A stretch of 64,000 nucleotides of DNA from a virus (IMGVR_UViG_3300042892_003674); one strand, 5' to 3'; counted from the first letter of the stretch, positions 4,107-26,067 are shown. Made by a program: numbers and translations. Notes: a model not told the origin generated them from the letters alone.

Positions 4107-4897
4107 ATATAATCATATACTGTTTCAATTACCAGCTCATTCTCTTTAGTTTTTTTACTATCTGATAAAAAGTGTGTATATCCTAATATACTTGCTGCAT
4201 CATCAATATTATTTATTGATGAGAAATCAGTAATCAACTTAACATTGTAGTTAAAATAATTACATAAATTAGTAATATAAAATTGTTCAAAAATTAAAGA
4301 TGTTATCTCATATTCCATATTGTAATTATCAATATATTCAATGTATTTTAATGCTTCACTCCACCAAATATCTAATATATCTAATCTATTAAATCCAATT
4401 ATACCACAATTATAAGACTCTTTAAAATTCCAATTTATATATTTTGAATCAAGTCTAAAGTTATTTATAAGATTAATGTAGGGACGTATATGACCTAATC
4501 CTACATCTTTCATAATTTCACTTTGCTGAAAACAAGCATCACTGTTTAGTAAATCTATTGGTGGTTTCTTTGACCAAATTACGTCATTATCTATATGAAT
4601 AAATGGTTCCTTCTGTATCTTACAGGCATATATTTTACCAATGGCCCAATGTTTAGAATCAATATTACTAAGAGCAGTTTCTAATTCAATAGATACTGAT
4701 GTAAATGGTAGTTTATACTTATCAATTAAAAGCTCTTTTCCCTTAATATCTGTTACCAATTCAACCTTAGAAAAATAATTTTTACTCATTTCTAATGAAA
4801 TTGATAAACATTTTATGAATATTTCCTCTCTATTAAATCCAAGTAAAAAGTCATCCATTGGTTTTGTCCAAAGTGAATATATTGCCTTATCTATCAT
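4088..4897 (-). CDS. Hypothetical protein.
   Basis: 269-aa ORF whose TAA lies inside the terminator hairpin. Contains a HIDNDV (DxD-like) motif, but no firm family assignment is possible. Confidence 0.7.
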   Translation of the reverse strand: MIDKAIYSLWTKPMDDFLLGFNREEIFIKCLSISLEMSKNYFSKVELVTDIKGKELLIDKYKLPFTSVSIELETALSNIDSKHWAIGKIYACKIQKEPFIHIDNDVIWSKKPPIDLLNSDACFQQSEIMKDVGLGHIRPYINLINNFRLDSKYINWNFKESYNCGIIGFNRLDILDIWWSEALKYIEYIDNYNMEYEITSLIFEQFYITNLCNYFNYNVKLITDFSSINNIDDAASILGYTHFLSDSKKTKENELVIETVYDYIIKKRL

Positions 4898-4928
4898 TTA
4901 ATTTATATTAAATAACTTAAATAAGTTG

Positions 4929-5014
4929 AAGAGAGCAAGGGAATCGAACCCTACCCAGTTTCCCGGGCGTCTCGCTTAGCAGGCGGACCCTATCACCATC
5001 AAGGTTTACTCTCC
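4929..5014 (-). tRNA. tRNA-Ser(GCU), class II with a long variable arm. The anticodon stem has one mismatch.
   Basis: Acceptor GGAGAGU/GCUCUCU, T-arm GGGTTCGATTCCC, variable stem CCCGG-GAAA-CTGGG, anticodon loop CTGCTAA, length 86 nt. Confidence 0.6.
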
Positions 5015-5020
5015 ATATTG

Positions 5021-5106
5021 CAGTGAACAAGGGAATCGAACCCTATGCGATTCAACGCACGTGCTGCTTTCCAGGCAGACCCAATCACCATCAAGGTTTA
5101 CTCACT
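5021..5106 (-). tRNA. tRNA-Ser(GGA), class II.
   Basis: Anticodon stem CTGC/GCAG with loop CTGGAAA, T-arm GGGTTCGATTCCC, D-arm identical to the previous tRNA, 86 nt. Confidence 0.7.
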
Positions 5107-5112
5107 ATGTTG

Positions 5113-5199
5113 CGGAGAAAACAGGGCTCGAACCTGCACACCAGTTTCCCGATACCGGTTTTCAAGACCGGGGCGATACCAATTACGCTTTACTTCTCC
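5113..5199 (-). tRNA. tRNA-Ser(UGA), class II.
   Basis: Acceptor GGAGAAG/TTTCTCC, anticodon stem CCGGT/ACCGG with loop CTTGAAA, T-arm CAGGTTCGAGCCCTG, 87 nt. Confidence 0.75.
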
Positions 5200-5210
5200 A
5201 AGTAATTTAG

Positions 5211-5294
5211 AAGAGAGTGTGGGACTCGAACCCACAAAGGTACTACCCTTTACTAGTTTTCAAAACTAGGCCTTCATCCAGCCAGTTACTCTCC
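5211..5294 (-). tRNA. tRNA-Ser(UGA), second copy, class II.
   Basis: Acceptor GGAGAGT/ACTCTCT, anticodon stem CTAGT/ACTAG with loop TTTGAAA, variable stem AAAGG-GTAGTA-CCTTT, T-arm TGGGTTCGAGTCCCA, 84 nt. Confidence 0.75.
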
Positions 5295-5303
5295 ATATAT
5301 TTG

Positions 5304-5375
5304 TGATTCCAGAGGGAATCGAACCCCCACCTGATCGTTCGTAGCGACCTATCCTATCCGTTAAACGATGGAACC
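5304..5375 (-). tRNA. tRNA-Arg(ACG).
   Basis: Acceptor GGTTCCA/TGGAATC, anticodon stem GGTCG/CGATC with loop CTACGAA, T-arm GGGGGTTCGATTCCCTC, 72 nt. Confidence 0.8.
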
Positions 5376-5379
5376 AATT

Positions 5380-5416
5380 AAAAACAAAAAACCCACAAAC
5401 TTTGAGGTTTGTGGGT
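5380..5416 (-). terminator. Intrinsic terminator, candidate attenuator hairpin, directly upstream of tRNA-Arg.
   Basis: On the minus strand: ACCCACAAAC-CUCAAAG-UUUGUGGGU followed by UUUUUUGUUUUU. It sits 19 nt after the stop of leader ORF A and ends 2-3 nt before the 5' end of the tRNA. Confidence 0.6.
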
Positions 5417-5436
5417 ATACTAATTTTTTATATCAA

Positions 5437-5514
5437 TTATGAATACAACAGAACCTCCCTCAAATTACTTGAGCGACTAGACGAACTTGACGATGTTGTG
5501 ATAATTGTTTTCAT
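5437..5514 (-). CDS. Candidate Ser-rich leader peptide A, 25 aa: MKTIITTSSSSSSRSSNLREVLLYS.
   Basis: ATG lies 6 nt after the TTTTAATATATAAATAAT motif. Nine Ser codons (TCG, TCA, AGT, TCT) plus CGC, matching the anticodons of the five tRNAs immediately downstream: Ser GCU/GGA/UGA x2 and Arg ACG. The ORF is below the 60-aa cutoff of the ORF track. Confidence 0.45.
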   Translation of the reverse strand: MKTIITTSSSSSSRSSNLREVLLYS

Positions 5515-5535
5515 ATTATTTATATATTAAAATTT
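5515..5535 (-). promoter_or_regulatory. Conserved TTTTAATATATA upstream motif, candidate phage promoter for leader A and tRNA block 1.
   Basis: Minus strand reads GAATAAAATTTTAATATATAAATAATATG. The same motif recurs upstream of more than 12 start codons in this window. Confidence 0.45.
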
Positions 5536-5558
5536 TATTCTTTGTTTTTATTTATTTG

Positions 5559-5689
5559 ATAGAAAGGTGGGACTCGAACCCACAACCACGGCTTTAACAG
5601 AGCGAAGTAACTTATTTCATTGCTACTAATTTCTTAGAGAAAGACTGACTAAGTATGATTACGTGCTCTACCAATTGAGCTACTTTCTA
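5559..5689 (-). tRNA. tRNA-like gene with a ~57-nt structured insertion between the D-arm and the anticodon stem. It may be an intron-containing tRNA-Asn(GUU) or a tRNA pseudogene.
   Basis: Perfect acceptor UAGAAAG/CUUUCUA, canonical D-arm GCTC-AATTGGTA-GAGC, T-arm GTGGGTTCGAGTCCCAC, anticodon-like loop CTGTTAA (GUU) with a 4/5-bp stem. Total length is 131 nt against an expected ~75. The inserted segment can fold as GUAA...UUAC enclosing CTTAG...CTAAG. Confidence 0.45.
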
Positions 5690-5693
5690 TTTG

Positions 5694-5764
5694 CACGTCG
5701 ACTAGGACTCGAACCTAGAACATTGGTTTTGGAGACCAAGATGATGCCATTTCACTATCGACGT
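5694..5764 (-). tRNA. tRNA-Trp(CCA).
   Basis: Acceptor ACGTCGA/TCGACGT, D-arm GTGA-AATGGCA-TCAT, anticodon stem TTGGT/ACCAA with loop CTCCAAA, T-arm CTAGGTTCGAGTCCTAG, 71 nt. Confidence 0.8.
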
Positions 5765-5771
5765 GTTTTGG

Positions 5772-5844
5772 GTTGACAGACGGGACTTGAACCCGCAATC
5801 CCTTGGTTCACAACCAAGTGCTTTAACCATTAAGCTACCATCAA
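5772..5844 (-). tRNA. tRNA-His(GUG), with no encoded G-1.
   Basis: D-arm GCTT-AATGGTTA-AAGC, anticodon stem CTTGG/CCAAG with loop TTGTGAA, T-arm GCGGGTTCAAGTCCCGT, 73 nt. Confidence 0.7.
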
Positions 5845-5846
5845 AG

Positions 5847-5921
5847 TGACCCCGGTGGGGATCGAACCCACGACCCCTCGATTAAAAGTCGAGTGCTCTA
5901 AACCAGCTGAGCTACGAAGTC
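5847..5921 (-). tRNA. tRNA-Lys(UUU).
   Basis: D-arm GCTC-AGCTGGTTTA-GAGC, anticodon stem CTCGA/TCGAG with loop CTTTTAA, T-arm GTGGGTTCGATCCCCAC, 75 nt. Confidence 0.85.
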
Positions 5922-5930
5922 ATTATTTTG

Positions 5931-6002
5931 TGCGGACTGACGGAATCGAACCGACCTCTTAGGGACTTCACTCCTACGCTAAACCGTCTCAGCTAAATCC
6001 GC
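5931..6002 (-). tRNA. tRNA, probably Phe(GAA). The structure is irregular: A-C at positions 31-39, G32/G37, and a U-U in the T-stem.
   Basis: Acceptor GCGGATT/AGTCCGC, anticodon arm TAGG-A-GTGAAGT-C-CCTA, T-arm GTCGGTTCGATTCCGTC, 72 nt. Confidence 0.5.
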
Positions 6003-6008
6003 AATTTG

Positions 6009-6081
6009 GGTGAAAGACGGGGATCGAACCCGCGACAACTTGAACCACAATCAAGCACTCTACCACTGAGCTACAATCACC
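6009..6081 (-). tRNA. tRNA-His(GUG) with an encoded G-1 pairing C73.
   Basis: Extra 5' G before acceptor GTGATTG/CTTTCAC (two U-U pairs), D-arm GCTC-AGTGGTA-GAGT, anticodon stem CTTGA/TCAAG with loop TTGTGGT, T-arm GCGGGTTCGATCCCCGT. Confidence 0.7.
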
Positions 6082-6088
6082 ATGTTTG

Positions 6089-6161
6089 TGGACCCTCAGG
6101 GAATCGAGCCCTGTCCTTTGGATTTTCAGTCCAACGTACGCACCAGCTATACGAAAGGTCC
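6089..6161 (-). tRNA. tRNA-Phe(GAA).
   Basis: Acceptor GGACCTT/AGGGTCC, anticodon stem TTGGA/TCCAA with loop CTGAAAA, T-arm CAGGGCTCGATTCCCTG, 73 nt. Confidence 0.75.
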
Positions 6162-6171
6162 ATTATATTTG

Positions 6172-6245
6172 CACAAGCCAAGGGAGTCGAACCCTTTCCA
6201 TCCGAGGTTTTGGAGACCTGGTGCATACCATTATGCTGACCTGTA
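6172..6245 (-). tRNA. tRNA with a CCA anticodon (Trp-like, second copy). The D-arm and the 26-27 junction are irregular.
   Basis: Acceptor ACAGGTC/GGCTTGT, D-stem GCAT/ATGC, anticodon stem (C)AGGT/ACCT(C) with loop CTCCAAA, T-arm AAGGGTTCGACTCCCTT. Confidence 0.5.
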
Positions 6246-6250
6246 TTTTG

Positions 6251-6323
6251 TGATCCCGGTGGGACTCGAACCCACAACCTTCTGATTAAAAGTCAGAAGC
6301 TCCACCAATTGAGCTACGAAATC
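6251..6323 (-). tRNA. tRNA-Lys(UUU), second copy.
   Basis: Acceptor GATTTCG/CGGGATC, D-arm GCTC-AATTGGTG-GAGC, anticodon stem TCTGA/TCAGA with loop CTTTTAA, T-arm GTGGGTTCGAGTCCCAC, 73 nt. Confidence 0.85.
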
Positions 6324-6329
6324 ATTTTG

Positions 6330-6402
6330 TTCCCCCGCCGGGAGTCGAACCCGGCCCCATAAGTTAAAAGCCTATTGCCTACCGCCAGTTTGCTACGAGG
6401 GA
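6330..6402 (-). tRNA. tRNA with a UUU-type anticodon loop (third Lys-like). The D-arm is poor.
   Basis: Acceptor TCCCTCG/CGGGGGA, anticodon stem ATAGG/CTTAT with loop CTTTTAA, T-arm CCGGGTTCGACTCCCGG, 73 nt. Confidence 0.55.
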
Positions 6403-6404
6403 TT

Positions 6405-6445
6405 ATAAAATAAAAAAACCCAAACTTAATTTTAAGTTCGGGTTT
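6405..6445 (-). terminator. Intrinsic terminator, candidate attenuator hairpin, immediately upstream of tRNA block 2.
   Basis: On the minus strand: CCCGAACUU-AAAAUU-AAGUUUGGG, perfect only as RNA thanks to a G-U pair, followed by UUUUUUUAUUUUAU that ends 3 nt before the 5' end of the tRNA at 6402. Confidence 0.6.
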
Positions 6446-6474
6446 ACGTTTATGCTTTATTCTCTTTTATGACA

Positions 6475-6585
6475 TTATCCTACAATAACATCTTCTTTTG
6501 AGAACGACATACTCATACATCCGAACTTGTGGCTAAACCACTTGAACGACTTACTAAAGCTTGTATGTTTGAAATTTGTTCTCAT
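6475..6585 (-). CDS. Candidate F/K/H/W-rich leader peptide B, 36 aa: MRTNFKHTSFSKSFKWFSHKFGCMSMSFSKEDVIVG.
   Basis: ATG lies 6 nt after TTTTAATATATATAAC. Composition is 6 Phe, 5 Lys, 2 His, 1 Trp and 7 Ser in 36 codons, matching the Lys/Phe/His/Trp tRNAs downstream. Codons AAG-UUC-GG are complementary to the 5' arm of the terminator. Confidence 0.5.
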   Translation of the reverse strand: MRTNFKHTSFSKSFKWFSHKFGCMSMSFSKEDVIVG

Positions 6586-6606
6586 TGTTATATATATTAA
6601 AAGTTT
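6586..6606 (-). promoter_or_regulatory. Conserved TTTTAATATATA upstream motif, candidate promoter for leader B and tRNA block 2.
   Basis: Minus strand reads AATAAACTTTTAATATATATAACAATG. Paralogous to the 5515..5535 copy. Confidence 0.45.
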
Positions 6607-6675
6607 ATTCTCTCTTTTTGTTTTTTTGTTATTTTTATAGTACAAAAGTAATAAAAGTTTACTTATCTACCTAAT

Positions 6676-6912
6676 TTATTTTAATTTATTTTTAATTTTA
6701 GTTGTAATCTTCTCTAAACTTGATTTAGAATTTGTTTTTTGTTTTGGAAATCTGCCATGATTTCCCATACTATCATAGTCAGCACATTCATATGCTGAAG
6801 GTGATGGTAGTCCACTATAGTGACAAAATTCATCCTCACTAAGTATTTCCTCTTTTTTATCTTCTTGTTTCATATTTAAAACTTCTTCTTTATTTATATT
6901 ACAAAGATACAA
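6676..6912 (-). CDS. Hypothetical small protein.
   Basis: 78-aa ORF in a co-oriented gene block. Confidence 0.5.
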   Translation of the reverse strand: MYLCNINKEEVLNMKQEDKKEEILSEDEFCHYSGLPSPSAYECADYDSMGNHGRFPKQKTNSKSSLEKITTKIKNKLK

Positions 6913-6920
6913 CTATATTT

Positions 6921-7199
6921 TTATAAACCAAGAATTTCTTCAAGTTTTCTATCTCTATACTCTTCTAAAGTTATAAAATCCCTAGCATAATACTGACCAA
7001 GTTTGTTTTTTCTTTCATCATAAACATCATATATAGGACAAATACCATAGTCACCTAAAAGTTTGACTTCGGTATATACACCATAATAAGTTTCATTCAC
7101 AACTAATTCTTTGTTTCTTGTATAGGAAATGTCTGGCTCTGCTATACAAAATATTTTTAAAATCATATTAAAGTCTTTTAATGTCAGGTAAAGTTTCAC
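6921..7199 (-). CDS. Hypothetical small protein.
   Basis: 92-aa ORF. Confidence 0.5.
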   Translation of the reverse strand: MKLYLTLKDFNMILKIFCIAEPDISYTRNKELVVNETYYGVYTEVKLLGDYGICPIYDVYDERKNKLGQYYARDFITLEEYRDRKLEEILGL

Positions 7200-7434
7200 T
7201 TGAATTAAGCATGTTACGAATAACTACTTTTTTTAACGGTGTTAGTTTTTTGTTTTTTAAAGCCTCTTCCACAATAAGGTGGTATGATAAACCCGATATA
7301 CTGTGACTTTTAAAGTTAGTTGACTCTTTTTTAACGAGTTCATCATAATTTGCACTTGGCATAGATTCTTTAAATAATTGACGATGTATATCGAGAATTA
7401 TCTTTTCCTCTTTACTAATTTTGGTCATTTCCAT
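7168..7434 (-). CDS. Hypothetical small protein.
   Basis: 88-aa ORF; its 3' end overlaps the next ORF by 32 nt. Confidence 0.45.
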   Translation of the reverse strand: MEMTKISKEEKIILDIHRQLFKESMPSANYDELVKKESTNFKSHSISGLSYHLIVEEALKNKKLTPLKKVVIRNMLNSSETLPDIKRL

Positions 7435-7481: not shown

Positions 7482-7685
7482 ATGCCCGCCCGCTCAAAAC
7501 AGCAATTAAAGTACATTTTTGCGATGCGTCGTAAATATAAAAACAAAAAAAGTGCTCCTAAACATATGAAGTGGGTATTTAACAAAGATTGGACCCACGA
7601 TGTCAATGTAAGTGGGTTACCAACCAAAGTTAAAAGCTTTCAAACTTATGTAAGTGAGAACTACGATGCTACTACTAAAAAGTAG
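7482..7685 (+). CDS. Candidate small Lys/Arg-rich basic protein, possibly nucleic-acid binding.
   Basis: 67 aa from ATG 7482: MPARSKQQLKYIFAMRRKYKNKKSAPKHMKW... It begins with an unusually GC-rich stretch, gcccgcccgc. It sits in an otherwise non-coding gap. The competing antisense ORF 7415..7627 is hydrophobic junk. Confidence 0.3.
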   Translation: MPARSKQQLKYIFAMRRKYKNKKSAPKHMKWVFNKDWTHDVNVSGLPTKVKSFQTYVSENYDATTKK

Positions 7686-8914
7686 TTTTTCTTACCTCTC
7701 TGAACTATAATAAATTTGTTATTTATTAAATCACCATCAGTTACGATGTATATTTCTTCTCTTTTTATTTTATTTACTGCAACAGAGTTTTCTTTTAAAG
7801 CTCGTCTTGCTTCATTATTAGATTTTAAGAAGCCAGTTTTAAATAGAATGTCGGTCATTGATATACCATTCACAATCTCTTCCATTGGAACATTTGCCAT
7901 TGGTAATCCACTAAATATATCTAAAATAGTTTCATTATCAAGTGAATTTAAGTTACCATTGTTAAATAGAATGTTTGAAGCTTCTACTGCTTTGTTAAAC
8001 TCTTCTTCACCATGTACCATTATAGTCAATTCTTTGGCTAATGTTTTTTGTAATAAAAACAAATGTCTAGCTTTATTGTGTTCTTCTATTAAACCATCAA
8101 TAGTTTCTTTATCTAAAAATGTAAAGATTTTAATAAATCTTTCTGCATCTGCATCATCTGTGTTTAACCAAAATTGGAAAAACTTGTAAACAGATGTTTT
8201 ATCTTTATCTAACCATATATTCCCACCTTCTGACTTACCAAATTTTGTACCATCTGCTTTTGTTAAAAGTGGACAAGTCATAGCAAATGCTTCTCTACCT
8301 GGGAACATCTTGTGTATCAATTCTGTACCTGTTGTTATGTTACCCCATTGATCAGAACCACCCATTTGTAATAAACAGTTATGTTCTTTATTAAGGTGTA
8401 AGAAATCGTATCCTTGAATCAACTGGTATGTAAATTCAGTGAAAGACATACCTTCACCTTCGATACGGTTTTTTACAGATTGTTTTGATAACATGTAATT
8501 TACGGTAATTCTTTTACCGATGTCTCTTACAAAGTCTATGAAACTAAACTTTGACATCCAATCGTAGTTGTTTAGAACTGGTGTATCACCTAAAAATCTT
8601 GTTAAAGTATTTCTGATACCTTCGACGTTTTTATTAAGTGTTTCTTCATCTAAAAGATTTCTTTCAGATGATTTCCCAGATGGGTCACCGATCATACCAG
8701 TAGCACCACCGACAACTGCGATTGGATTATGTCCAAAGTTCTTCATATGTTTTAAAAGAATGATTGGAACTAAACTACCAATATGTAGAGAATCTGACGT
8801 TGGATCAAATCCAATATAAGCGGTGGTGGCTTCTTTTAAAAGTTGAGCCTCCGTTCCGGGTATAATATCATGTACTAACCCACGCCATTTTAATTCTTCT
8901 ACTATATTTTTCAT
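7661..8914 (-). CDS. tyrS: Tyrosyl-tRNA synthetase, bacterial type.
   Basis: GFDPTSDSLHIGSLVPI (HIGH-type motif), KFGKS (KMSKS), C-terminal S4-like domain, 417 aa. Confidence 0.9.
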   Translation of the reverse strand: MKNIVEELKWRGLVHDIIPGTEAQLLKEATTAYIGFDPTSDSLHIGSLVPIILLKHMKNFGHNPIAVVGGATGMIGDPSGKSSERNLLDEETLNKNVEGIRNTLTRFLGDTPVLNNYDWMSKFSFIDFVRDIGKRITVNYMLSKQSVKNRIEGEGMSFTEFTYQLIQGYDFLHLNKEHNCLLQMGGSDQWGNITTGTELIHKMFPGREAFAMTCPLLTKADGTKFGKSEGGNIWLDKDKTSVYKFFQFWLNTDDADAERFIKIFTFLDKETIDGLIEEHNKARHLFLLQKTLAKELTIMVHGEEEFNKAVEASNILFNNGNLNSLDNETILDIFSGLPMANVPMEEIVNGISMTDILFKTGFLKSNNEARRALKENSVAVNKIKREEIYIVTDGDLINNKFIIVQRGKKNYFLVVAS

Positions 8915-12961: not shown

Positions 12962-14182
12962 TTAGTGTTCACTGTCCTTTATTTTAGATAATACCGCTTG
13001 AACCCTTGTATTATGTACCTCATCAACAATTTCTTTTCTTACTGAAAGTTCATAAAGTAAAGCGGTTGTATCATCAATCTCTTGTCCTGGTTCAATAGTA
13101 TGTTTTTCTAATACTGAAAAAGCAATTGTTGGATCTTCTTTATATAGTTCCAATAATGATTTTAATATTGTAACTTGTTCAGTTAGTTTATAACCTCTTA
13201 GATTAAGAATTGTCTTTGGTAAAAACTTAATTGTTTTTGAAAGTAATTTCATATCTTCTAAATCAACACCACCATCTACATAATCTTCATTTATAAATAA
13301 AGGTCTCAATTGATTCCATATATCCACCAATTCCGGTTTCATATAAATGTTTCTTAGATAAAATAAGAAATCGTCACCTTTATGAATTGCAAGTAGATTA
13401 TTATCTAATAATACCTCTTTTTTAGTTTTTAAAGTCCATAGATTTACATCTTTGTCATATGTCGTTTTGACGTGTGTCATACAATCTAAATCTTGTTCTA
13501 TTGTAAAATAGTTTTCAAGTATCTTATGATTGTTAAACATATTAAAATATCTATCTTGAAATCTAACTTTATAAACATCTTGAAGTTGACGAGATAAGAC
13601 CCCTTGAATAATCTCTAATTCAAATAAGTCTAAATCAACTTTTAGTTCTTCTGATTTCTTTACAATTCTAATTGCCGTATGACACGGTGTTTTCAAATTA
13701 GTTATCTGTAATTTACCTTTATTTAAGAACTTCTCAAATTCTGGTGTCCAATAAAACTTATCTTCTTCAATTGAATAACCAATTGCGGTACAATTTATAT
13801 CAAATGATTTGATAATGATTTCTGGATTATGAGTATTTGATTTATAACTAACGTAGTTGAATATACCTTCTGTAGTTGATTCACAAATAGAATAATAGTT
13901 TTTGGCTCTATCAATAAATCTTAGTCCAGAATAATCATCATACCAGACATTTTCTTCATCTTCTTTAAATGAATAAAGGTATTCTCTTCTATCTTCGTTA
14001 TAGTTTTCTAAGAGTCCATCAAACAAAAAAACATCAATATCATTGATGATTGCTTTTGTTCCAGAAACCTCTTCCCAGATAAGATTTGAAATAGAACCTC
14101 CTGCAATAAATCCTCTTTTAGGTAATCCCCATTGTGATTTTATTTTATCAAGAGCTCTTTTTGCTAACTGTTCAACGTTCAT
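12962..14182 (-). CDS. Putative Pol-beta-superfamily nucleotidyltransferase. Possibilities include a CCA-adding or tRNA-repair enzyme or a cGAS/CD-NTase-like enzyme; this is unresolved.
   Basis: 406 aa; N-terminal GGS...(22 aa)...DIDVF (GS-DxD-like) motif. Confidence 0.7.
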   Translation of the reverse strand: MNVEQLAKRALDKIKSQWGLPKRGFIAGGSISNLIWEEVSGTKAIINDIDVFLFDGLLENYNEDRREYLYSFKEDEENVWYDDYSGLRFIDRAKNYYSICESTTEGIFNYVSYKSNTHNPEIIIKSFDINCTAIGYSIEEDKFYWTPEFEKFLNKGKLQITNLKTPCHTAIRIVKKSEELKVDLDLFELEIIQGVLSRQLQDVYKVRFQDRYFNMFNNHKILENYFTIEQDLDCMTHVKTTYDKDVNLWTLKTKKEVLLDNNLLAIHKGDDFLFYLRNIYMKPELVDIWNQLRPLFINEDYVDGGVDLEDMKLLSKTIKFLPKTILNLRGYKLTEQVTILKSLLELYKEDPTIAFSVLEKHTIEPGQEIDDTTALLYELSVRKEIVDEVHNTRVQAVLSKIKDSEH

Positions 14183-16423: not shown

Positions 16424-16712
16424 TTAATATATTTTTTAATCTATTTTCTCTTAATTCTTTAACAATAAAACTTTTATCCTTATTAAACTCGTAGTAGTAA
16501 CGAAATTTATAAGCATTTAAAATAGTATGTAGTTGGTCTTTATTTGCCTTATGAAGGTTCTTAATAATACCCTCTTCGACATTTTTGAAAGTAGCTGCTT
16601 CTATATTAGAAGAAAAATTCTTGGCTCTAATTGCAAAGTCTTGTAAATCTAATATGTCTTTTTGAAGATTCTCTAATCTTTCAATAATTACTTCTGATAT
16701 ATCTCCTTTCAT
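16404..16712 (-). CDS. Hypothetical protein.
   Basis: 102 aa. Confidence 0.55.
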   Translation of the reverse strand: MKGDISEVIIERLENLQKDILDLQDFAIRAKNFSSNIEAATFKNVEEGIIKNLHKANKDQLHTILNAYKFRYYYEFNKDKSFIVKELRENRLKNILNGEEEK

Positions 16713-18547
16713 TATGATAATAAGTTTTCTAATTCTTCTACTGTTAAGATTACAACTCCAAGAGAGATAGCTTTCGTTTCTTTACTTGAGCCCGAACCTT
16801 TTGATTTCATTACTAAGTATGTTGTAGTTTTGGATACAGAACCAGCAACTTTACCACCACGTGATTCAATTACTTCTTCTAAATCTTTTCTACGAACACC
16901 AGTAAATACAAATGATTTACCTTCTAAATCTGTGCCAACTTTTACTGTTTCTACTTTCTCTACAATTTTTACAGGAAGATTTCCTACAAATGTAAAGAAA
17001 TTATCGTAATTATCCACAAAAACTTTTGCAGAAATTTCAGCAAATCCTTCAATCTCCATAACTTGGTCAACTGTAGGTTTAGTTGTAAAGTGTTCTAATA
17101 AAGCTAACTTCTTACTACCTAATCCTTTGAACAAGCCTGTGGCGTGTTGAAGTTTAGATAGTTGAACATCAGTAACCGATTTTTGAATTGAGTTATAAAC
17201 AATCTGAGCTTTTCTTTTACCAAATCTGTCAATCTTCTCTAATTGATCTGTAGTAACATTTAAAATGTCTTCGATAGTTTTATAACCAGCATCCCATAAT
17301 TGAGTGATGATACCTTCTGACACATTGTCTGCTTCTAAGATTTCAAAGAACGCAATATTTTGTCTTATCTTTTGATCGTCAGTCTCAGTCAAAGTAACTA
17401 ACTCAATACCATTTTCATTCCATTCGATTTCAGTACCGTCAACAACTGGCATAACAAAGTCAACAGTTTCTAATACTTCAACAATCAATGGAATAACCAT
17501 ACCACTTCTCTTAACTACAACTTTCGCACCAATTCCTAAACCCATATCTTTTACGAATTTAGCATTGTTACCAGTTACGTTAGAAACAGTAACACCGTCT
17601 AATTTAATTGGAGTAATATGTAAAACAGGTTTTAAGAGTCCGTGTTTAGAGATATTCCAAGAAATACCTAATACTGTCGCCTCTGCTTTTTGTTCAAAGG
17701 AGTCGTGTTTAAATGCTCTTGCGTAACAAGGATTGTTAGAAGAAGTCTCACGACCTAGACTATTTTGTAAGTTAAGATCATTTACTTCAAGAATTATACC
17801 ATCGATTTCATAATCAGTAGACCATCTTTTGAATAACTCTACTAAAAAGTCTTCTGTAATATCTTTGGCGATAAATAAATGATAGTTTACTTTAACTTCT
17901 TGACCAGTGTTTAATATATCCAATATGTCTGACTTAGTTCTAAAGTTAAATCCTTCATTTGGTATAGCACCATATTTAATAAATTGTAAATCTTTTAGGG
18001 GTTCAGTTACCTCTTTTGAGTTAAGTAAGCCAGCAACTAAGTTTCTTGGATTGGCAAACTCTGTTGAATATTTATCAATAAAAACTTGTTTAGGCATGAT
18101 AACCTCACCGTAAGTATATGTGAATGGATCACTTTTTAAAGATAAGTGATTTTTTATTAGTTTGTAGTGTTCATCTGACTTCTGGCCGAACTCACCATCG
18201 CCTCTAGTCCAGGTATTTGTATTGATTTCGTCATGACATAAAGAAAGTCCATCATATTTTGGAGTACATACAATTTCGGTATTCGGATTGATACCTTTTA
18301 ATCTTAACCATGTGTGTATGTCTTCAATGGTTTTAATTTTATTCATAGAAGCCATATCGATAGGTAATCTTGACTTTCTTGTTTCATCAAGAACTTCAAT
18401 TCCTACTTTTGAAAAAATTTCATTTTCTGGATCATATGAATATAATAATTCAAGTAATGAATCATACTCTTTATCAGACATAATTTCATTACCAGTTCTA
18501 TAAGCGATATTTGCTTCTTCTAATTTTGTTACTATTCTATCTATCAT
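16712..18547 (-). CDS. ligA: NAD-dependent DNA ligase (LigA).
   Basis: KYDG adenylation motif without the Arg seen in ATP ligases, OB and HhH regions, and a C-terminal BRCT (KSFVFTGVRRKDLEEVIESRGGKV); 611 aa. Confidence 0.85.
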   Translation of the reverse strand: MIDRIVTKLEEANIAYRTGNEIMSDKEYDSLLELLYSYDPENEIFSKVGIEVLDETRKSRLPIDMASMNKIKTIEDIHTWLRLKGINPNTEIVCTPKYDGLSLCHDEINTNTWTRGDGEFGQKSDEHYKLIKNHLSLKSDPFTYTYGEVIMPKQVFIDKYSTEFANPRNLVAGLLNSKEVTEPLKDLQFIKYGAIPNEGFNFRTKSDILDILNTGQEVKVNYHLFIAKDITEDFLVELFKRWSTDYEIDGIILEVNDLNLQNSLGRETSSNNPCYARAFKHDSFEQKAEATVLGISWNISKHGLLKPVLHITPIKLDGVTVSNVTGNNAKFVKDMGLGIGAKVVVKRSGMVIPLIVEVLETVDFVMPVVDGTEIEWNENGIELVTLTETDDQKIRQNIAFFEILEADNVSEGIITQLWDAGYKTIEDILNVTTDQLEKIDRFGKRKAQIVYNSIQKSVTDVQLSKLQHATGLFKGLGSKKLALLEHFTTKPTVDQVMEIEGFAEISAKVFVDNYDNFFTFVGNLPVKIVEKVETVKVGTDLEGKSFVFTGVRRKDLEEVIESRGGKVAGSVSKTTTYLVMKSKGSGSSKETKAISLGVVILTVEELENLLS

Positions 18548-21600: not shown

Positions 21601-21858
21601 ATTTATTTTAAACTTAATTCATTAGATAATAGTCAAACTGGATTAAACTATCAATATATTGATCTTAATAATTCAACAAAAACGGTAAAACATGTTAAGA
21701 AAATTAAATTCTTCTTAGAAAATGAGGCAGAAAATAGACCATTTATATTTACATTAAAATTTAACTTAAATAGAAATAAAGTTATTGTAAGAAAATTCAA
21801 CTCAACTGGTGGTAGTCCAGCATATATAGATGATTGGTCAACATCAAGTAAAAAATAA
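18652..21858 (+). CDS. Large hypothetical virion-structural candidate.
   Basis: 1068 aa, Asn/Thr/Ser-rich, no enzymatic motifs. Confidence 0.85.
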   Translation: MVQSSFPKVADQIITYNKNIVEILSKINSLTTTTDSSVTLQVYDENGVLRNFTLPSFTSLKADIDRLNNNINSLYSIDAAGALIQTSTQNKYKKIITVDLNRDPTPIGSLGTLSTFKSSANWFFDSLMDPMVSVELDLSGKIEDNVRKCLIRRYIVDFAKNADGSFTTLGQSALNSYNQLFRSNANIIISEFENWYTTTTGLLNPTNPKYDEQMFDLEPNNLLYDGQFSVLRIQEDRLNRKLWYVLDTLDYLVVDTNSTRKLSIGDEVIINSEKTSTRYKILEVSTAESNPRIRVERVEGIEPIPVGIGTLKIYSSVIYTKRVRVSVGYNERNVLFVKPVNADNNLVAKKWSLGTGYYTNDLRLTSDSSANGLSMEQFYIDYVYDYGVVLQDLVAKKTPNSLAGTPGSPVLALDNFKVVQINKHLTDTPDSNLVKQKHNYQLSLKSEIQQLQEAILSRNKAAKFTKFKSDSAKKQADLEVEELTNKKDSKSKLLASVTQEVIDLSKDPKNKVAPKFSVRGFWTIPSAVVTTGTKPQEIVQFRIQYRYTSKDGREAPVDTFTITDSQSKASFSNWTEFKTDARKREYNTSTGEYTWAIEDVTSADTPNINQIDIPIQSNERVDIRIKSISEVGWPESAVESDWSEIITIDFPDDLNTIANENDFILTTATKEDLKISMNSELSAKGLDNHLADTVTVNNVTFHHDAKKILSGFQDENGVSLDLYVYIQKLSDRITSLEEKITRAKGELQIIILRNNQEFIVNNGSETTFNVECEDYCTLFNGQGAPTGRVYENNIYVIKDFVMKIKNNAKESLLGLLSNRTYLQSSSVYNTQAPQSFWVNNQDELLTNDVIETSQTRTHLDNQFVWQMNYDSITQNTVAKLSENIGNTFDNPTVNSNSITNILSTSDYNVGYNESSILKFIGNNKSLLDPAKWNDVTVSIASTTKFLTTIHPVVKSLENIQENNSDKVKTVNVGDKNSIIIPLNIYFKLNSLDNSQTGLNYQYIDLNNSTKTVKHVKKIKFFLENEAENRPFIFTLKFNLNRNKVIVRKFNSTGGSPAYIDDWSTSSKK

Positions 21859-21867
21859 TAGTTTAAA

Positions 21868-24800
21868 TTGAAAAGTTTTGGTTTATTAAGAACAAATGTT
21901 GGATTGACAACAAATATTAAGGTTATGGTTGATACTAGTTATAAACTAAGTTTAGATAGTATTGAATCTGATCCTAACTTATCTTTTGATAAATTTAAGA
22001 AGGTTAGTTTTACTAAAGATAACTACTATGATGAGTTGATACCATACTTTTACAAAACTTTACCGGCAGATACTGCATTTTCAATTAAGTATGAAAATGA
22101 TGTTGATACAATGTCAAATGATTTTAAAAATCAATATGATGAATTGTATAGTTATGGAGCTCGTAATATAGTTAATAATAAAAACTATACTGAAGAGTAT
22201 GAATATTTTGCACCTTTATACATTACTAAAAATCATTTACCTAAAAACTTTATTATTTTTAGAGTTGATGGTTCTGGTATAGGGACTACAGATAGAAATA
22301 ACTTTAATACGGAAATAATTAAAAAATTAAAGACAGTTAAATTATTTGATTTAAGTAAGCAAAGTGTATTGGGTGAGTGGTTAGGAAAGAATTTTATAGA
22401 TAATAAATATTTCCCAGATTCTCCATTGGATATAGATTTTAGAAATTTGGAATTTTGTAGATGGAATGGTATAGATTATCAGAATGGTGGATATACATAT
22501 AAATCTTTATTTATTGATGATATATTAGACGAGGAAAAAGAAATATTTGAACTTGAGAAGTTTATATTTGACTCTTATAAAAATAACAAAGTTGTTTTTC
22601 CTAATATATTAAACTTCTCGTTTTTATTCGATGATAAACCATCAACACCCGAAATTAAAAGAAAATGGTCTATAAATAGATATTATGGATTTTACTTAAA
22701 TGATTTAGAATTGATTAAAACGGTTTCACCTTATTTATCAGTACCTTTACGTAGTGATATTATTGTTACTCAAAATAGTAGTAATACTGGAATATCAAAT
22801 ATAATTTACTCACCAAGTAATGACAATCCATTTCTTCAAGAATGGTCAAGTAAAAAACCATTTTATGTAGAATATAATGGAAATTATTATAAAGTAGAAC
22901 AATTTACTGAAACTATTTCAAATCAATTAGTTAAAATTAATAATCCATTAAGTAATACCGAAAGTAGAATGTCAAAAGATTTGGGATTTAGTTCATCAAA
23001 ATATAATCCAAATGCGAGTGTTATAAAAAAATCAGTTACGACAAATACTAAATCCGCAGTAGAGGATTTTACAGATGTTATTGTTACAAAATATAAAATA
23101 ATAACTGACTTAAATTTAACTGGCTTAACTGCATCTAGTTTTAACCAAAATTATGCAGAGATTGATACTACTAATAAACTAATTACTAGTGATGGTAGTA
23201 CAATAAAAGACCTTCAAATAAATGGTTTTGATGATGCCGATGTTTGGATAATTGAAATCGATGGTATATATCATAACTTAGTTAAGATAGATAATTATAT
23301 AATGCTTAGTACAGATTATTCTTTTATTTTTAACCAAAATGACTTCATATATAAAGTTGGAGGTGAATCTACAAAAGTTAGTACGGTAGTTGATTTCAAT
23401 AATGAACCTAAGAAGTTTTCAATTTATAAATTAAATTTCTCTGATATAAAAGATTTTGATACAAGAATTGTTGATACTGATTATTCAAAATATGAATATG
23501 AGGAGTCTACAAATATTACTTCTACTGATGAGACAAAAATGTATTTAGAAGATATAAGAAGTTTAACTGACCCTATAAATTTAGATGATTTTAGTTATCA
23601 AAATAGAATAGTTAATATACCAACATCTTCCGAATATACTGCTAATTATGAGACATTTAAAATAGATGGTAATGATTTATCTGAAATATGGAGAAAAAAT
23701 CCGGTTTATTGTAAATGGGGATTTCATAAATCACTTTCTGCAAATGATTTACCATACTCATTAAATAACTCTTTAATTTTTGAGGACTTTAATAGAACGG
23801 CCAATATTTATGAACCATTTCCAATAAGATCTGAAAGAAATTTAGATTATTTTTATACAATAAACTCGGCATCATCTTCTTATGTTTATCATAGTTTACA
23901 TGTGCAAAATTTAGATAGTAATAATAATATAGATACTACATTTAAGTTTGAATTAAATAAGTATTTAAACTTTACATATTCTTATTTTGATAGTGTTACT
24001 TCAACAACACAGTCAACAACATCATATCCATATGACTATTTTACATATCTATTTAGTAAATCTAGTAAATTATTTAATGGTAAAATTAAAGAGAATTCTA
24101 ATAAATATTCGTATTTTAATGTAGGTGATGAGTCAGTACCAAATCATACTTTATTTAGAGGTATAAAATTTGATATTTATGAAGTTGATAGTATCAAGAT
24201 CAATACAAATAATCAAATTGATAAAATCAATATAAAATCATCTAATTTATTTGATGATTATAAATTTTCGGTTTTACTATCTGACAATAACTCTACACCA
24301 ATATTTGATACTAGTGATACTAGTAAAGTAATTGGTCTTACCGCTTCAGATAGTAAACTTATTTGGAATGTTATTGATGAATGGAAAATGGATAAACAAT
24401 ATGTATATGGTGGAACAGGTTGGGCAAATGCAATAAAAGTTTTACATGATGATATTCTATACTTTAGAAATTCTTCAAGTACTACTAATAATCCAATATT
24501 TGCAACATATGGTATTACAATACCGTCTGCGCCTTACACACAAAGATGGAGTTATAACAATGATAGAAATAGTGTTTTTTGGTCACCATTAGTAATGGGA
24601 TATAGTTCTGCAATAAGTGGTGCAAGTCCATCAGTTGTATATAATTCGGGAGAATATTATTATTGTGCATCGGAATCCAATACTATTGATTTTTGGAACC
24701 CAGCAAAATCTATTACAACCGGTTATACAACTGCATCAATAGTTATCTATAAAAATAATTATTATACATCATTAGTTGATAATAATTACTTCAAACCAAC

Positions 24801-26067
24801 TATGAATACTTGGACTATGTCTTCGGGTACTCCATCAAAATGGGAATTAGTAGAGTCTTGGAATTCAACTAAACAATACTATTATGATGGTACATTTTCT
24901 GGTAATGTTGTTTATAATAATAATATTTATAAATTATCTTGGGTATCTGCAAGTGCTAGTATTTTTGTATTACCTGGTATCAATCCAATACAATCAAACT
25001 ATTGGGTAGAAAGAAGGGATAGATCATTTAATTCAGTTGCGGGTACAAATTCAATAATTAGATTAAATAATAGATATAATATTTTAGTTGGTGGTGGACA
25101 ATCTACTCCTTCTAATCTTAATAATGGTATTGTTATTTACATCAATAAGAAGTGGAAGAATGTATTAGTAAATATAAACATAAGTGATGGTACAACACCA
25201 AATATATCTAATTCAAATAGAGATAGTTTATATAATGATATAAATCAAAAGCTAACTGCTGCAAATTTTACAAATGCAATAAATGATATTACTAATAAAT
25301 ATGGATTTAGTAACTATCTATCATATATTATTATTGATGAAAATAATAATATTAAAAGATACAGTTATTCACCGATTGATGGTGGTAGTATAAAAGATTT
25401 ACCATATATACTAAAGTGTGAAGAGCCAGATAAATTAGATGTTAAAGTGAATTCATTATTTAAAAGAGCGGTTGAACTTCCAAATACACTAAATCCAATT
25501 AAAAAATTGGATGCGGGAAGAATAGTGGATATAACAGAATTAAATTATTATAATAATATTCCAGTTGCTGCTAATATTATTGAAAATCAATATCCACCTA
25601 AAGTTTTTGAGAACTATCATGGTAATAAAAATATTATCTCAAACGAAATACATAGATTTAGTGGTTATTATAGTCCTGTCTTTTATGATATTCAATTATT
25701 TGAAAGAGATTCTAATGGAATACCATCGGGTGGTAATTATAAATTTGATACTTTATTAAATAATTTTGGTTTAATGAGAGAAAGAAAGATCAGAAAAATC
25801 AACAGAAAAGGAAACATATTAAGATTGGGTAACATAAATGATGAAAAGTCAATATATCCAATGTTAGATGAGTTTGGATATTCTATTTATGACTTTTTTA
25901 TATTCTCATCAACTTGGGATTTAAAGTATTATTTAGAAACCGTTTCTAATAGTAAAAATAAAGATTATTTACAAAAATATACTGCGGATGAAAATGTAAT
26001 AAATACATTTGATATTACGACACCAATTGTAATACCATCTTTTATAGGAAAAACACAAGATAATTAA
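21868..26067 (+). CDS. Large hypothetical virion-structural candidate.
   Basis: 1399 aa; Asn/Tyr/Ser-rich. Confidence 0.85.
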   Translation: MKSFGLLRTNVGLTTNIKVMVDTSYKLSLDSIESDPNLSFDKFKKVSFTKDNYYDELIPYFYKTLPADTAFSIKYENDVDTMSNDFKNQYDELYSYGARNIVNNKNYTEEYEYFAPLYITKNHLPKNFIIFRVDGSGIGTTDRNNFNTEIIKKLKTVKLFDLSKQSVLGEWLGKNFIDNKYFPDSPLDIDFRNLEFCRWNGIDYQNGGYTYKSLFIDDILDEEKEIFELEKFIFDSYKNNKVVFPNILNFSFLFDDKPSTPEIKRKWSINRYYGFYLNDLELIKTVSPYLSVPLRSDIIVTQNSSNTGISNIIYSPSNDNPFLQEWSSKKPFYVEYNGNYYKVEQFTETISNQLVKINNPLSNTESRMSKDLGFSSSKYNPNASVIKKSVTTNTKSAVEDFTDVIVTKYKIITDLNLTGLTASSFNQNYAEIDTTNKLITSDGSTIKDLQINGFDDADVWIIEIDGIYHNLVKIDNYIMLSTDYSFIFNQNDFIYKVGGESTKVSTVVDFNNEPKKFSIYKLNFSDIKDFDTRIVDTDYSKYEYEESTNITSTDETKMYLEDIRSLTDPINLDDFSYQNRIVNIPTSSEYTANYETFKIDGNDLSEIWRKNPVYCKWGFHKSLSANDLPYSLNNSLIFEDFNRTANIYEPFPIRSERNLDYFYTINSASSSYVYHSLHVQNLDSNNNIDTTFKFELNKYLNFTYSYFDSVTSTTQSTTSYPYDYFTYLFSKSSKLFNGKIKENSNKYSYFNVGDESVPNHTLFRGIKFDIYEVDSIKINTNNQIDKINIKSSNLFDDYKFSVLLSDNNSTPIFDTSDTSKVIGLTASDSKLIWNVIDEWKMDKQYVYGGTGWANAIKVLHDDILYFRNSSSTTNNPIFATYGITIPSAPYTQRWSYNNDRNSVFWSPLVMGYSSAISGASPSVVYNSGEYYYCASESNTIDFWNPAKSITTGYTTASIVIYKNNYYTSLVDNNYFKPTMNTWTMSSGTPSKWELVESWNSTKQYYYDGTFSGNVVYNNNIYKLSWVSASASIFVLPGINPIQSNYWVERRDRSFNSVAGTNSIIRLNNRYNILVGGGQSTPSNLNNGIVIYINKKWKNVLVNINISDGTTPNISNSNRDSLYNDINQKLTAANFTNAINDITNKYGFSNYLSYIIIDENNNIKRYSYSPIDGGSIKDLPYILKCEEPDKLDVKVNSLFKRAVELPNTLNPIKKLDAGRIVDITELNYYNNIPVAANIIENQYPPKVFENYHGNKNIISNEIHRFSGYYSPVFYDIQLFERDSNGIPSGGNYKFDTLLNNFGLMRERKIRKINRKGNILRLGNINDEKSIYPMLDEFGYSIYDFFIFSSTWDLKYYLETVSNSKNKDYLQKYTADENVINTFDITTPIVIPSFIGKTQDN

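Follow-up and report, generated by a model that had tools for sequence, protein, structure and literature searches.

Short leader reading frames and terminators ahead of two tRNA gene blocks in a huge phage of Bacteroidota: candidate ribosome-mediated attenuators

The stretch of DNA analysed here (the window, 64,000 nucleotides (nt) in full) comes from the virus IMGVR_UViG_3300042892_003674, a huge phage of Bacteroidota. At 4928-6402 the window carries 15 transfer RNA (tRNA)-like genes, all on the minus strand: 12 solid genes, two unusual class II Ser genes and one interrupted Asn gene. The array is divided into two transcription units, each preceded by a region with a short open reading frame (ORF) that we call a leader. 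These two regions, which probably regulate the tRNA genes behind them, are the subject of this work.

ARAGORN with default settings predicted 12 tRNA genes (5112-6402), and the Rfam model RF00005 produced 11 matches at its gathering score (30-71 bits). Relaxed settings (-ps90) gave 15 genes (Lys x3, Trp x2, Phe x2, His x2, Asn, Arg-ACG, Ser-UGA x2, Ser-GGA and Ser-GCU), precisely the genes and identities named in a first-pass annotation of the sequence. The divergence of duplicates noted there was seen as well, since genes with the same anticodon are 61-82% identical. The contrary scenario, that most duplicates are non-functional, does not fit with 11 of the 15 genes passing the Rfam gathering score.

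The order of transcription is Lys, Lys, Trp, Phe, His, Phe, Lys, His, Trp, Asn in the first block (block B) and Arg(ACG), Ser(UGA), Ser(UGA), Ser(GGA), Ser(GCU) in the second (block A). Block B, on the minus strand as all genes of the array, starts with tRNA-Lys(UUU) at 6329..6402 (default ARAGORN; Rfam 43.3 bits) and a second tRNA-Lys(UUU) at 6250..6323 (default ARAGORN; 71.4 bits), followed by tRNA-Trp(CCA) at 6171..6244 (ARAGORN; absent from the Rfam list at gathering score), tRNA-Phe(GAA) at 6088..6161 (default ARAGORN; 57.1 bits) and tRNA-His(GUG) at 6008..6081 (57.4 bits). Then come the second tRNA-Phe(GAA) at 5930..6002 (47.0 bits), the third tRNA-Lys(UUU) at 5846..5921 (default ARAGORN; 67.8 bits), the second tRNA-His(GUG) at 5769..5844 (65.1 bits), the second tRNA-Trp(CCA) at 5693..5764 (default ARAGORN; 60.5 bits) and the interrupted tRNA-Asn(GUU) at 5558..5689. 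Block A consists of tRNA-Arg(ACG) at 5303..5375 (default ARAGORN; 49.1 bits) and four class II genes: tRNA-Ser(UGA) at 5210..5292 (weak acceptor stem; 30.3 bits), a second tRNA-Ser(UGA) at 5112..5199 (37.9 bits), tRNA-Ser(GGA) at 5020..5108 and tRNA-Ser(GCU) at 4928..5015.

The last two genes were called by ARAGORN -ps90 and lie under the tRNA gathering score; their best model is tRNA-Sec (32.3 bits for Ser(GGA) and 38.9 bits for Ser(GCU)), yet below its own gathering score of 47. Homologues of Ser(GGA) are present in the related loci L001-L003, and those of Ser(GCU) in L001, L002 and L085. In both genes the anticodon stem is 6 bp long and contains a single bulged base; this bulge is also found in the phage genome LR745206 (L085, ~21710-21880). 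The second tRNA-Phe (5930-6002) is odd in its anticodon loop, with a G at positions 32 and 37, and has one mismatch where the anticodon stem begins at its base. As described earlier, only one of the two His genes has G-1: a G stands at 6081 next to the gene body 6008-6080, while the gene at 5769-5844 has a U at this position. The second His tRNA would therefore need post-transcriptional addition of G, or a histidyl-tRNA synthetase that does not require G-1. The reported U-U pairs in acceptor stems were located in the first His gene, which has two of them.

Spacing of 2-10 nt, given for the whole array in the first-pass annotation, applies inside the blocks (1-10 nt) and fails between them, where a 182-nt spacer occurs (5376-5557). 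A comparable region (6403-6650) precedes block B, and both are structured regulatory regions. The proposed enrichment in tRNAs for codons frequent in AT-rich genes stood up in part: a comparison with codon usage agrees with it for Lys-UUU, Phe, Asn and the three Ser isoacceptors, and not for Trp, His and Arg-ACG. Trp and His make up 1.3% and 1.2% of codons in phage genes, and Arg-ACG reads CGU/CGC/CGA, which amount to 13% of phage Arg codons, vs 81% for AGA.

On the transcribed strand both regions have the same anatomy: a conserved TTTAATATATA element stands 5-6 nt 5' of the ATG of a short ORF, and between this ORF and the first tRNA gene comes a perfect hairpin with a U-run behind it. Leader ORF A (5437..5514, minus strand) has 25 codons, encodes MKTIITTSSSSSSRSSNLREVLLYS and lies ahead of Arg-ACG and the four Ser tRNAs. 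Its run TCG TCA AGT TCG TCT AGT CGC TCA AGT includes codons for all three Ser isoacceptors and for Arg-ACG, so that the best stretch of the leader has nine Ser/Arg codons out of nine consecutive ones. Leader ORF B (6475..6585, minus strand) has 36 codons, encodes MRTNFKHTSFSKSFKWFSHKFGCMSMSFSKEDVIVG (beginning with MRTNFKHTSFSKSFKWFSHKFG) and lies ahead of the Lys x3, Trp x2, Phe x2, His x2 and Asn genes. Residues 4-21 of leader B are nearly all N, F, K, H, W or S; in its core 12 of 19 residues are cognate to the block (binomial P = 1e-6), N/F/K/H/W codons count 13/18, and all F/K/H/W codons are decodable by tRNAs of the block. We ranked the ATG-initiated ORFs of the window (all six frames, 20-60 aa) by their content of amino acids cognate to a block, and each leader came first out of 220. 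A scan of the whole window for further modules of a short ORF with a terminator found none beyond leaders A and B.

Intrinsic terminator A (5376..5416, minus strand) is a 10-bp hairpin ACCCACAAAC/GTTTGTGGGT (5391-5416) followed by TTTTTGTTTTT, with a predicted free energy of -14.3 kcal/mol; it begins 20 nt past the stop codon, and the hairpin is 15 nt ahead of tRNA-Arg. Intrinsic terminator B (6404..6445, minus strand) is a 13-bp hairpin AAACCCGAACTTA/TAAGTTTGGGTTT (6416-6445) followed by TTTTATTTT, with -15.1 kcal/mol; it begins 29 nt past the stop codon, and the hairpin is 13 nt ahead of the first tRNA. Given gaps of 13-15 nt, there is no space for a promoter between hairpin and tRNA genes.

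Both leaders are kept in four close relatives from IMG/VR (L001-L004; flanking proteins 89-92% identical). The Ser/Arg run of these relatives has undergone synonymous changes (TCG to TCT, TCT to TCA and CGC to CGT) as well as an in-frame 27-nt insertion, and the tRNA arrays vary in copy number and order. Searching with a pattern that joins the upstream element to the first four codons of the leader (ATGARAACAA), we obtained 79 viral loci. About 40 of these are distinct modules in which a short ORF is followed, 59-98 nt on, by tRNA genes on the same strand. The same pattern detected at least 31 new leaders in metagenome contigs, which brings the distinct modules in viral and metagenome contigs to at least 71. 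The 635-kb phage genome LR745206 also has the two modules, whose leaders and terminators have diverged.

Leader composition varies with the tRNA content of the block (NIVCT, LR, QDP, YEIGA, QQ and others). For example, a leader MKTTTININVITITNCVNNTT... precedes tRNAs for Asn, Ile, Val, Cys and Thr; MKTTNLNINLTLNVLCLRQR... precedes Arg(UCU) and five Leu tRNAs; and MKTINVNIAQVQPQDQDP... precedes Gln, Asp and Pro tRNAs. In a survey independent of the pattern, covering all tRNA blocks in every retrieved locus, we found MTTFTQQYQQQQ ahead of Gln Gln, MTTVTTYYYEAYEE ahead of Glu/Tyr, MKTTHKIEAIGYAYEAG ahead of Tyr Glu Ile Gly Ala and MNTTTLNTNLSLRSLLLR ahead of Leu Arg Leu Arg. Leader classes that the pattern did not select (QQ, EYEEY, YEIGA, IG and LRLR) follow the same cognate rule. 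The relatives have additional blocks for Asn/Ile/Val/Cys/Thr, Leu/Arg-UCU, Gln/Asp/Pro, Tyr/Glu/Ile/Gly/Ala and Met; the apparent bias of the repertoire arises because the window shows just two of several modular blocks. One group of pattern matches (MKTRALKNFGHISETV...) has no tRNA genes downstream and was considered as a counter-example; it belongs to an unrelated phage of higher GC content, has no hairpin with a U-run and was set aside as a chance match.

Blocks without a leader mostly come after inserted endonuclease genes. Homing-endonuclease-like ORFs are located between tRNA genes of the relatives (L001 12956-13968, L002 ~13013-13836, L003 8333-9109 and L004 7348-7765); they are of the HNH type or of a DUF559/Vsr-like type with a C-terminal ...KYGVSDNTIRKWI tail, and their ends abut or overlap the next tRNA-Phe. 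The array of the window itself has no inserted endonuclease ORF. The relatives also have extra tRNA-like genes missed by ARAGORN, with insertions or degenerate T arms (L004 8187-8296 and L003 8095-8183). In metagenome contig L118 (3047-3128, minus strand) three tandem matches to the promoter-plus-start pattern are spaced 28 nt apart; the start of the leader could have been duplicated in tandem there.

The correspondence between leaders and blocks was assessed at several levels. For six family representatives, the true pairing of leaders with blocks was the best of 720 permutations, with per-module binomial P from 3e-3 to 4e-7. Every amino acid of a block was present in its own leader in 40 out of 40 distinct modules, each detected independently (random pairing: mean 19.6, maximum 27) and in 45 of 46 metagenome modules among the matches listed. 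The signal is specific to the reading frame: at residues 4-22, 48.5% are cognate in frame vs 12.1% and 10.5% in the shifted frames (P ~3e-8). At the codon level, 189 of the 209 cognate codons are decodable by a tRNA of the block. Arg codons track the anticodon, being CGC/CGT in Ser/Arg leaders with Arg-ACG and AGA in Leu/Arg leaders with Arg-UCU. Leaders prefer codons that are rare in phage genes (CGC, 0% of Arg; TCG, 3% of Ser; TTC, 19% of Phe; AAG, 19% of Lys), and a biased choice of regulatory codons is described for classical attenuators (PMC1183508). Purifying selection on the leader peptides was looked for and not seen: homologous leaders show 65 non-synonymous vs 17 synonymous codon differences; codon content is conserved and peptide sequence is not, and we read the leader as a sensor of codon content.

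The terminators of all modules tested have energies of -12 to -20 kcal/mol and are located 6-34 nt ahead of the first tRNA. The distance from stop codon to terminator is 20-34 nt in 40/40 modules; in classical amino-acid attenuators, too, the terminator is placed >20 bp past the leader stop codon, which spares it from suppression by a ribosome at that codon (PMC4824070). Past the regulatory codons, at codons 17-30, each leader has a copy of the 3' arm of its own terminator, complementary to the 5' arm (duplexes of -8 to -22 kcal/mol). Pairs of leader stretch and 5'-arm complement are CAAGTTCGG/CCGAACTT in module B of the window, CTCTGAGGG/CCCTCAGA in L010, GACTAACTG/CAGTTAGTC in L022 and GATTCGA/TCGAATC in L085. 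Over ten families, the leaders' own stretch-arm pairs sum to -104.7 kcal/mol vs -73.5 +/- 7.2 for random pairs (0 of 20,000 as good). In the Ser/Arg family, with the position held constant, the true pairing is within the top 3 of 720. The cognate codons are upstream of the stretch in 81% of cases.

In the window, the predicted antiterminator segment of leader A is GGAGGTTCTGTTGT (5445..5458, minus strand; codons 19-24), which pairs with ACAAACCTC, the end of the terminator 5' arm plus part of the loop. The duplex (~-10 to -12 kcal/mol) is formed in the folds with a ribosome on codons 2-15 and is blocked with a ribosome from codon 16 through the stop. The predicted segment of leader B is CAAGTTCGGA (6520..6529, minus strand; codons 19-22), complementary to CCGAACTT in the terminator 5' arm (8-bp duplex, -11.9 kcal/mol); it pairs with the 5' arm in folds of truncated transcripts with the A-site on codons 4-15. 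As equilibrium energies are undiscriminating, we folded nascent transcripts truncated before the 3' arm. In these folds the leader stretch sequesters the 5' arm when the ribosome footprint is on the regulatory codons, and frees the arm once the ribosome reaches the stretch; in leader A the arm stays free through to the stop codon, as in the classical picture. Without a ribosome, the nascent fold favours the antiterminator.

A candidate -7 promoter box, TACTTTTG (6643..6650, minus strand), is located 57 nt upstream of the start codon of leader B. It has the form TAnnTTTG, which we take to be the -7 consensus of Bacteroidetes sigma-A. Of 40 modules, 29 have such a box at a distance of 20-73 nt upstream of the leader's ATG (shuffled sequences: mean 1.5, maximum 6). 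We infer that TACTTTTG is the promoter of the leader B unit, and the TAnnTTTG boxes suggest the host RNA polymerase as the enzyme that transcribes the tRNA units. Host RNA polymerase recognises intrinsic terminators.

The TTTAATATATA element is located 5 nt upstream of the ATG in leader B (6591..6601, minus strand) and 6 nt upstream in leader A (5521..5531, minus strand). The exact element also occurs, always oriented with the gene, 4-6 or 20-25 nt 5' of eight long genes of the window (9560, 18619, 28373, 30989, 36473, 38255, 46626 and 58335), and hence the short ORFs share the start context of real phage genes. The consensus over 38 modules ends in TTTTAATATATA, mostly 3-7 nt ahead of the ATG. 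The element may be a second, phage promoter or a signal for the start of translation. Among the 41 long ORFs of the window, none shows a Shine-Dalgarno-like motif, and the sequences upstream of them are rich in A. We also considered leaderless transcripts that begin at the ATG, since TTTAATATATA sits 4-6 nt upstream; this is uncertain given the TAnnTTTG box ~57 nt upstream in most modules.

The anatomy is observed and conserved; leader codons co-vary with the identity and the anticodon of the tRNAs, and leader segments with the terminator arms. On these grounds we consider it likely that the array is made of two tandem tRNA units, each gated by a ribosome-mediated (leader-peptide) transcription attenuator. 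Transcription would begin upstream of the 25- or 36-codon leader ORF, whose early codons match the downstream tRNAs. With cognate aminoacyl-tRNAs plentiful, a ribosome would quickly cover the antiterminator segment and prevent its pairing, and the terminator would form 6-34 nt before the first tRNA. With any cognate aminoacyl-tRNA scarce, the ribosome would stall on the regulatory codons, leaving the segment free to pair with the emerging 5' arm of the terminator, and the polymerase would read through into the tRNA genes. The outcome would be a demand-driven and self-limiting supply of phage tRNAs (negative feedback), with one switch per amino-acid group.

Several points weigh against this attenuation model. 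Our evidence is computational throughout, and from it we infer translation of the ORFs, function of the terminators and direction of the response. Most loci were gathered by a pattern that holds the first four leader codons; the downstream tRNA content was outside this selection. Module A is without a TAnnTTTG box of its own and may be partly fed by read-through from block B. In the Lys/His/Phe/Trp family the co-variation of stretch and terminator is weak (rank 53 of 720), because the terminators have a common CCGAAC core. Equilibrium folds with a ribosome footprint form the terminator at all ribosome positions, so the model rests on co-transcriptional kinetics. The stretch is re-exposed with the ribosome at the stop codon in leader B, as in other long leaders; for termination to occur under replete conditions, one more assumption is then required (timing, a second ribosome, or a long hairpin failing to zip around a bound ribosome). 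No clear or conserved upstream hairpin that could serve as an anti-antiterminator or pause (1:2) structure was found among the modules; a GUGG...CCAC hairpin of leader B is not retained in relatives. Coupling of transcription and translation in Bacteroidota is assumed. Finally, extra tRNA is no remedy for a shortage that comes from amino-acid starvation.

How the tRNA genes of phages are regulated, and why phages carry them, is a long-standing question, and the usual answers are codon-usage compensation and escape from tRNA-targeting defences. A plain compensation array would hold redundant tRNAs for AT-rich codons, with some copies decaying, and its ORFs and hairpins would have no regulatory role. 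In agreement with this, Lys-UUU, Phe-GAA, Asn-GUU and the three Ser isoacceptors read codons common in phage genes, copy number and order shift fast among relatives, and several members have imperfect stems. Still, we find compensation alone improbable: it leaves Trp, His and Arg-ACG unexplained, and accounts neither for the ORFs with cognate codons in nearly every module and their match at the level of frame and codon, nor for a strong terminator just ahead of promoterless tRNAs. If the ORFs encoded small functional peptides, or were separate small genes with terminators of their own, the tRNAs would be expressed through constitutive leakage; the start context of real phage genes and the conservation of open frames, including the in-frame 27-nt insertion, would be as observed. 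This is very unlikely in view of the unconserved peptide sequence, and it predicts neither the tRNA-matching codon content nor the co-variation with terminator arms.

The sign of the response could be inverted, with efficient leader translation suppressing the terminator, so that tRNAs are made when their cognates are plentiful (positive feedback) and stalling leads to termination. A ribosome near a terminator can suppress it (PMC4824070), and a simple footprint model has the antiterminator of long leaders unblocked with the ribosome at the stop codon. We judge the inversion unlikely, as the gap between stop codon and hairpin always exceeds the range of suppression by the ribosome, as in classical attenuators, and as it gives no reason for a co-varying copy of the 3' arm in each leader. 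A choice between terminator and antiterminator linked to tRNA identity would also fit a T-box-like leader, in which the untranslated RNA senses uncharged tRNA or another factor directly. Such a leader is extremely unlikely here: an Rfam scan of 4850-6500 with E-values up to 10 detected no T-box and no other known RNA family (sub-threshold matches in the spacer were to the Thr and His leader models only, at 22-25 bits, which speaks for leader-peptide attenuation), a single specifier cannot explain leaders with 4-8 cognate amino acids, and the signal is confined to a single reading frame, opened by a conserved ATG.

Returning to the attenuation model, the leaders might also sense loss of tRNA during infection, caused by host anticodon nucleases, other tRNA-targeting defences or phage-induced turnover of host tRNA. 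The arrays would then be an inducible counter-defence rather than a constitutive supplement for codon usage, with a codon-resolved and demand-driven tRNA supply in huge phages of Bacteroidota; we put this forward tentatively, as a possibility that is rather doubtful at present.

The interrupted tRNA-Asn(GUU) gene consists of a 5' part (5662-5689), a 58-nt insertion (5604-5661, minus strand) between tRNA positions 28 and 29 of the anticodon stem, and a 3' part (5558-5603). It had been listed with a question mark; it is a conserved interrupted gene and not a decayed pseudogene. With the insertion in place default ARAGORN makes no call, and without it a clean tRNA-Asn is reported; removal of the insertion restores a perfect cloverleaf in the window and in the loci L007 and L036. 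Anticodon stems differ among lineages in a compensatory way (CGGCT/AGCCG vs CGCGG/CCGCG), and the insertion found at the identical site in distant relatives is 55 nt long and differs in sequence. Interrupted tRNA-Asn genes of relatives are located at L001 14045, L002 13913, L007 4351 (minus strand) and L036 1104 (minus strand). The insert, which includes a small hairpin closed by a GNRA loop, is shorter than a group I intron could be. By inspection, with no dedicated search, no obvious bulge-helix-bulge was seen at the junctions GAGCACG^UA...ACUUC^GCU. The intron mode of ARAGORN called a tRNA-Met(CAU) with a 51-nt intron; this call was rejected for its poor stems, since removal of 58 nt at 28/29 gives a perfect tRNA-Asn in three lineages. 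The insertion is a candidate for a non-canonical phage tRNA intron or an extra arm.

Assignment of the window to a huge phage of Bacteroidota draws on protein similarity and on the lack of Shine-Dalgarno-like motifs. A 1068-aa protein is 75% and 68% identical to proteins of the uncultured phage genomes LR745206 (635 kb) and LR756502 (642 kb), ~29% identical to its counterparts in Prevotella Lak megaphages, and 24-30% identical to those in phages of Tenacibaculum, Chryseobacterium, Flavobacterium and Sphingomonas. Genomes >634 kb were placed in the Mahaphage clade, with predicted infection of Bacteroidetes (PMC7162821). LR745206 and the IMG/VR contigs were obtained from freshwater lakes. A megablast search for close phage relatives gave only short tRNA matches, and distant blastn matches of the array were mostly generic tRNA similarity, LR745206 and LR756502 being the exceptions. 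Tenacibaculum phage PTm1, a distant homologue (28% identity) considered as a cultured relative, has 308 annotated features; its first 50 kb include no tRNA features (last coding sequence of the stretch inspected, ORF-056), and it was set aside.

Upstream of the array by 1.3 kb, a gene for tyrosyl-tRNA synthetase is located at 7661-8914 (minus strand; phrog_9270, E = 7e-141), 41-57% identical to other phage enzymes of this kind; no leader-peptide module of its own was found for this gene. Between it and the candidate promoter of leader B there are three small ORFs (6680-6873, 6923-7165 and 7170-7434, minus strand). Elsewhere in the window, an NAD-dependent DNA ligase is encoded at 16712-18547, an SbcC-like protein at 52802-54499 and, at 58349-62176, a protein of 1275 aa that has a glycosyltransferase domain. 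Three very large ORFs on the plus strand (21868-26067, 39551-44929 and 46641-51233; 1399, 1792 and 1530 aa) have no match or a marginal match in PHROG.

If the attenuation model is true, the phage gauges the availability of aminoacyl-tRNAs codon by codon, makes the matching tRNAs and stops once supply recovers; classical attenuation would be extended to RNA genes, to viruses and to a phylum without Shine-Dalgarno sites. Under the counter-defence reading, ribosome-mediated attenuation would be described for the first time in a virus, and for the first time with tRNA genes as output. The modules are ~150 nt long and portable, the leader sequence predicts the amino acids sensed, and more than 70 natural variants span nearly all amino acids; such variants could act as sensors of charged tRNA. 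For annotation, short ORFs and hairpins within phage tRNA arrays should not be dismissed as noise. We know of no leader-peptide attenuator that has been characterised in Bacteroidota. A full-text literature search, incomplete in coverage, retrieved no description of leader-peptide control of tRNA genes or of any phage tRNA cluster, nor of such control in a virus. The terms 'leader peptide' and 'attenuator' were not found in the top-listed papers on jumbo and huge phages, and the huge-phage paper makes no use of attenuator, leader or terminator (PMC7162821).

Among known systems, the tight packing of the genes is shared with other phage tRNA clusters (T4, T5, KVP40, mycobacteriophages and huge phages). 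Many tRNAs and synthetases are known from the Mahaphage clade of huge phages (PMC7162821). T-box riboswitches also couple tRNA charging to a choice between terminator and antiterminator; they bind uncharged tRNA through a specifier codon and the T-box sequence, free of translation, whereas the modules described here have an ORF in a defined frame. Leader-peptide attenuation of synthetase genes is known from the pheM-pheST attenuator and from leaders upstream of hisS paralogues and leuS (PMC1262725, PMC2965389). In these cases, as here, the target is the translation apparatus and not a biosynthetic pathway; there, one amino acid is sensed and a protein-coding synthetase gene is controlled, while the phage leaders precede blocks of tRNA genes.

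The closest parallel is with the classical leader-peptide attenuators of biosynthesis operons in Proteobacteria (trpL, hisL, pheL, leuL, thrL and ilvL). Shared features are a short ORF with a cluster of regulatory codons, biased codons, a terminator >20 nt past the stop codon and, immediately past the regulatory codons, a segment able to pair with the 5' arm; leaders that sense more than one amino acid also have counterparts in thrL (Thr, Ile) and ilvL (Ile, Leu, Val). The phage modules differ in their viral carrier, in the number of amino acids per leader (up to ~8), in a Bacteroidota type of host without Shine-Dalgarno sites, in having no clear 1:2 pause or anti-antiterminator hairpin and in showing no sequence homology (22-25 bits with the Rfam Thr and His leader models). 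Classical attenuators control enzymes, whereas the genes downstream of the phage leaders are tRNA genes only, and the output is therefore of the same class of molecule as that which is sensed.

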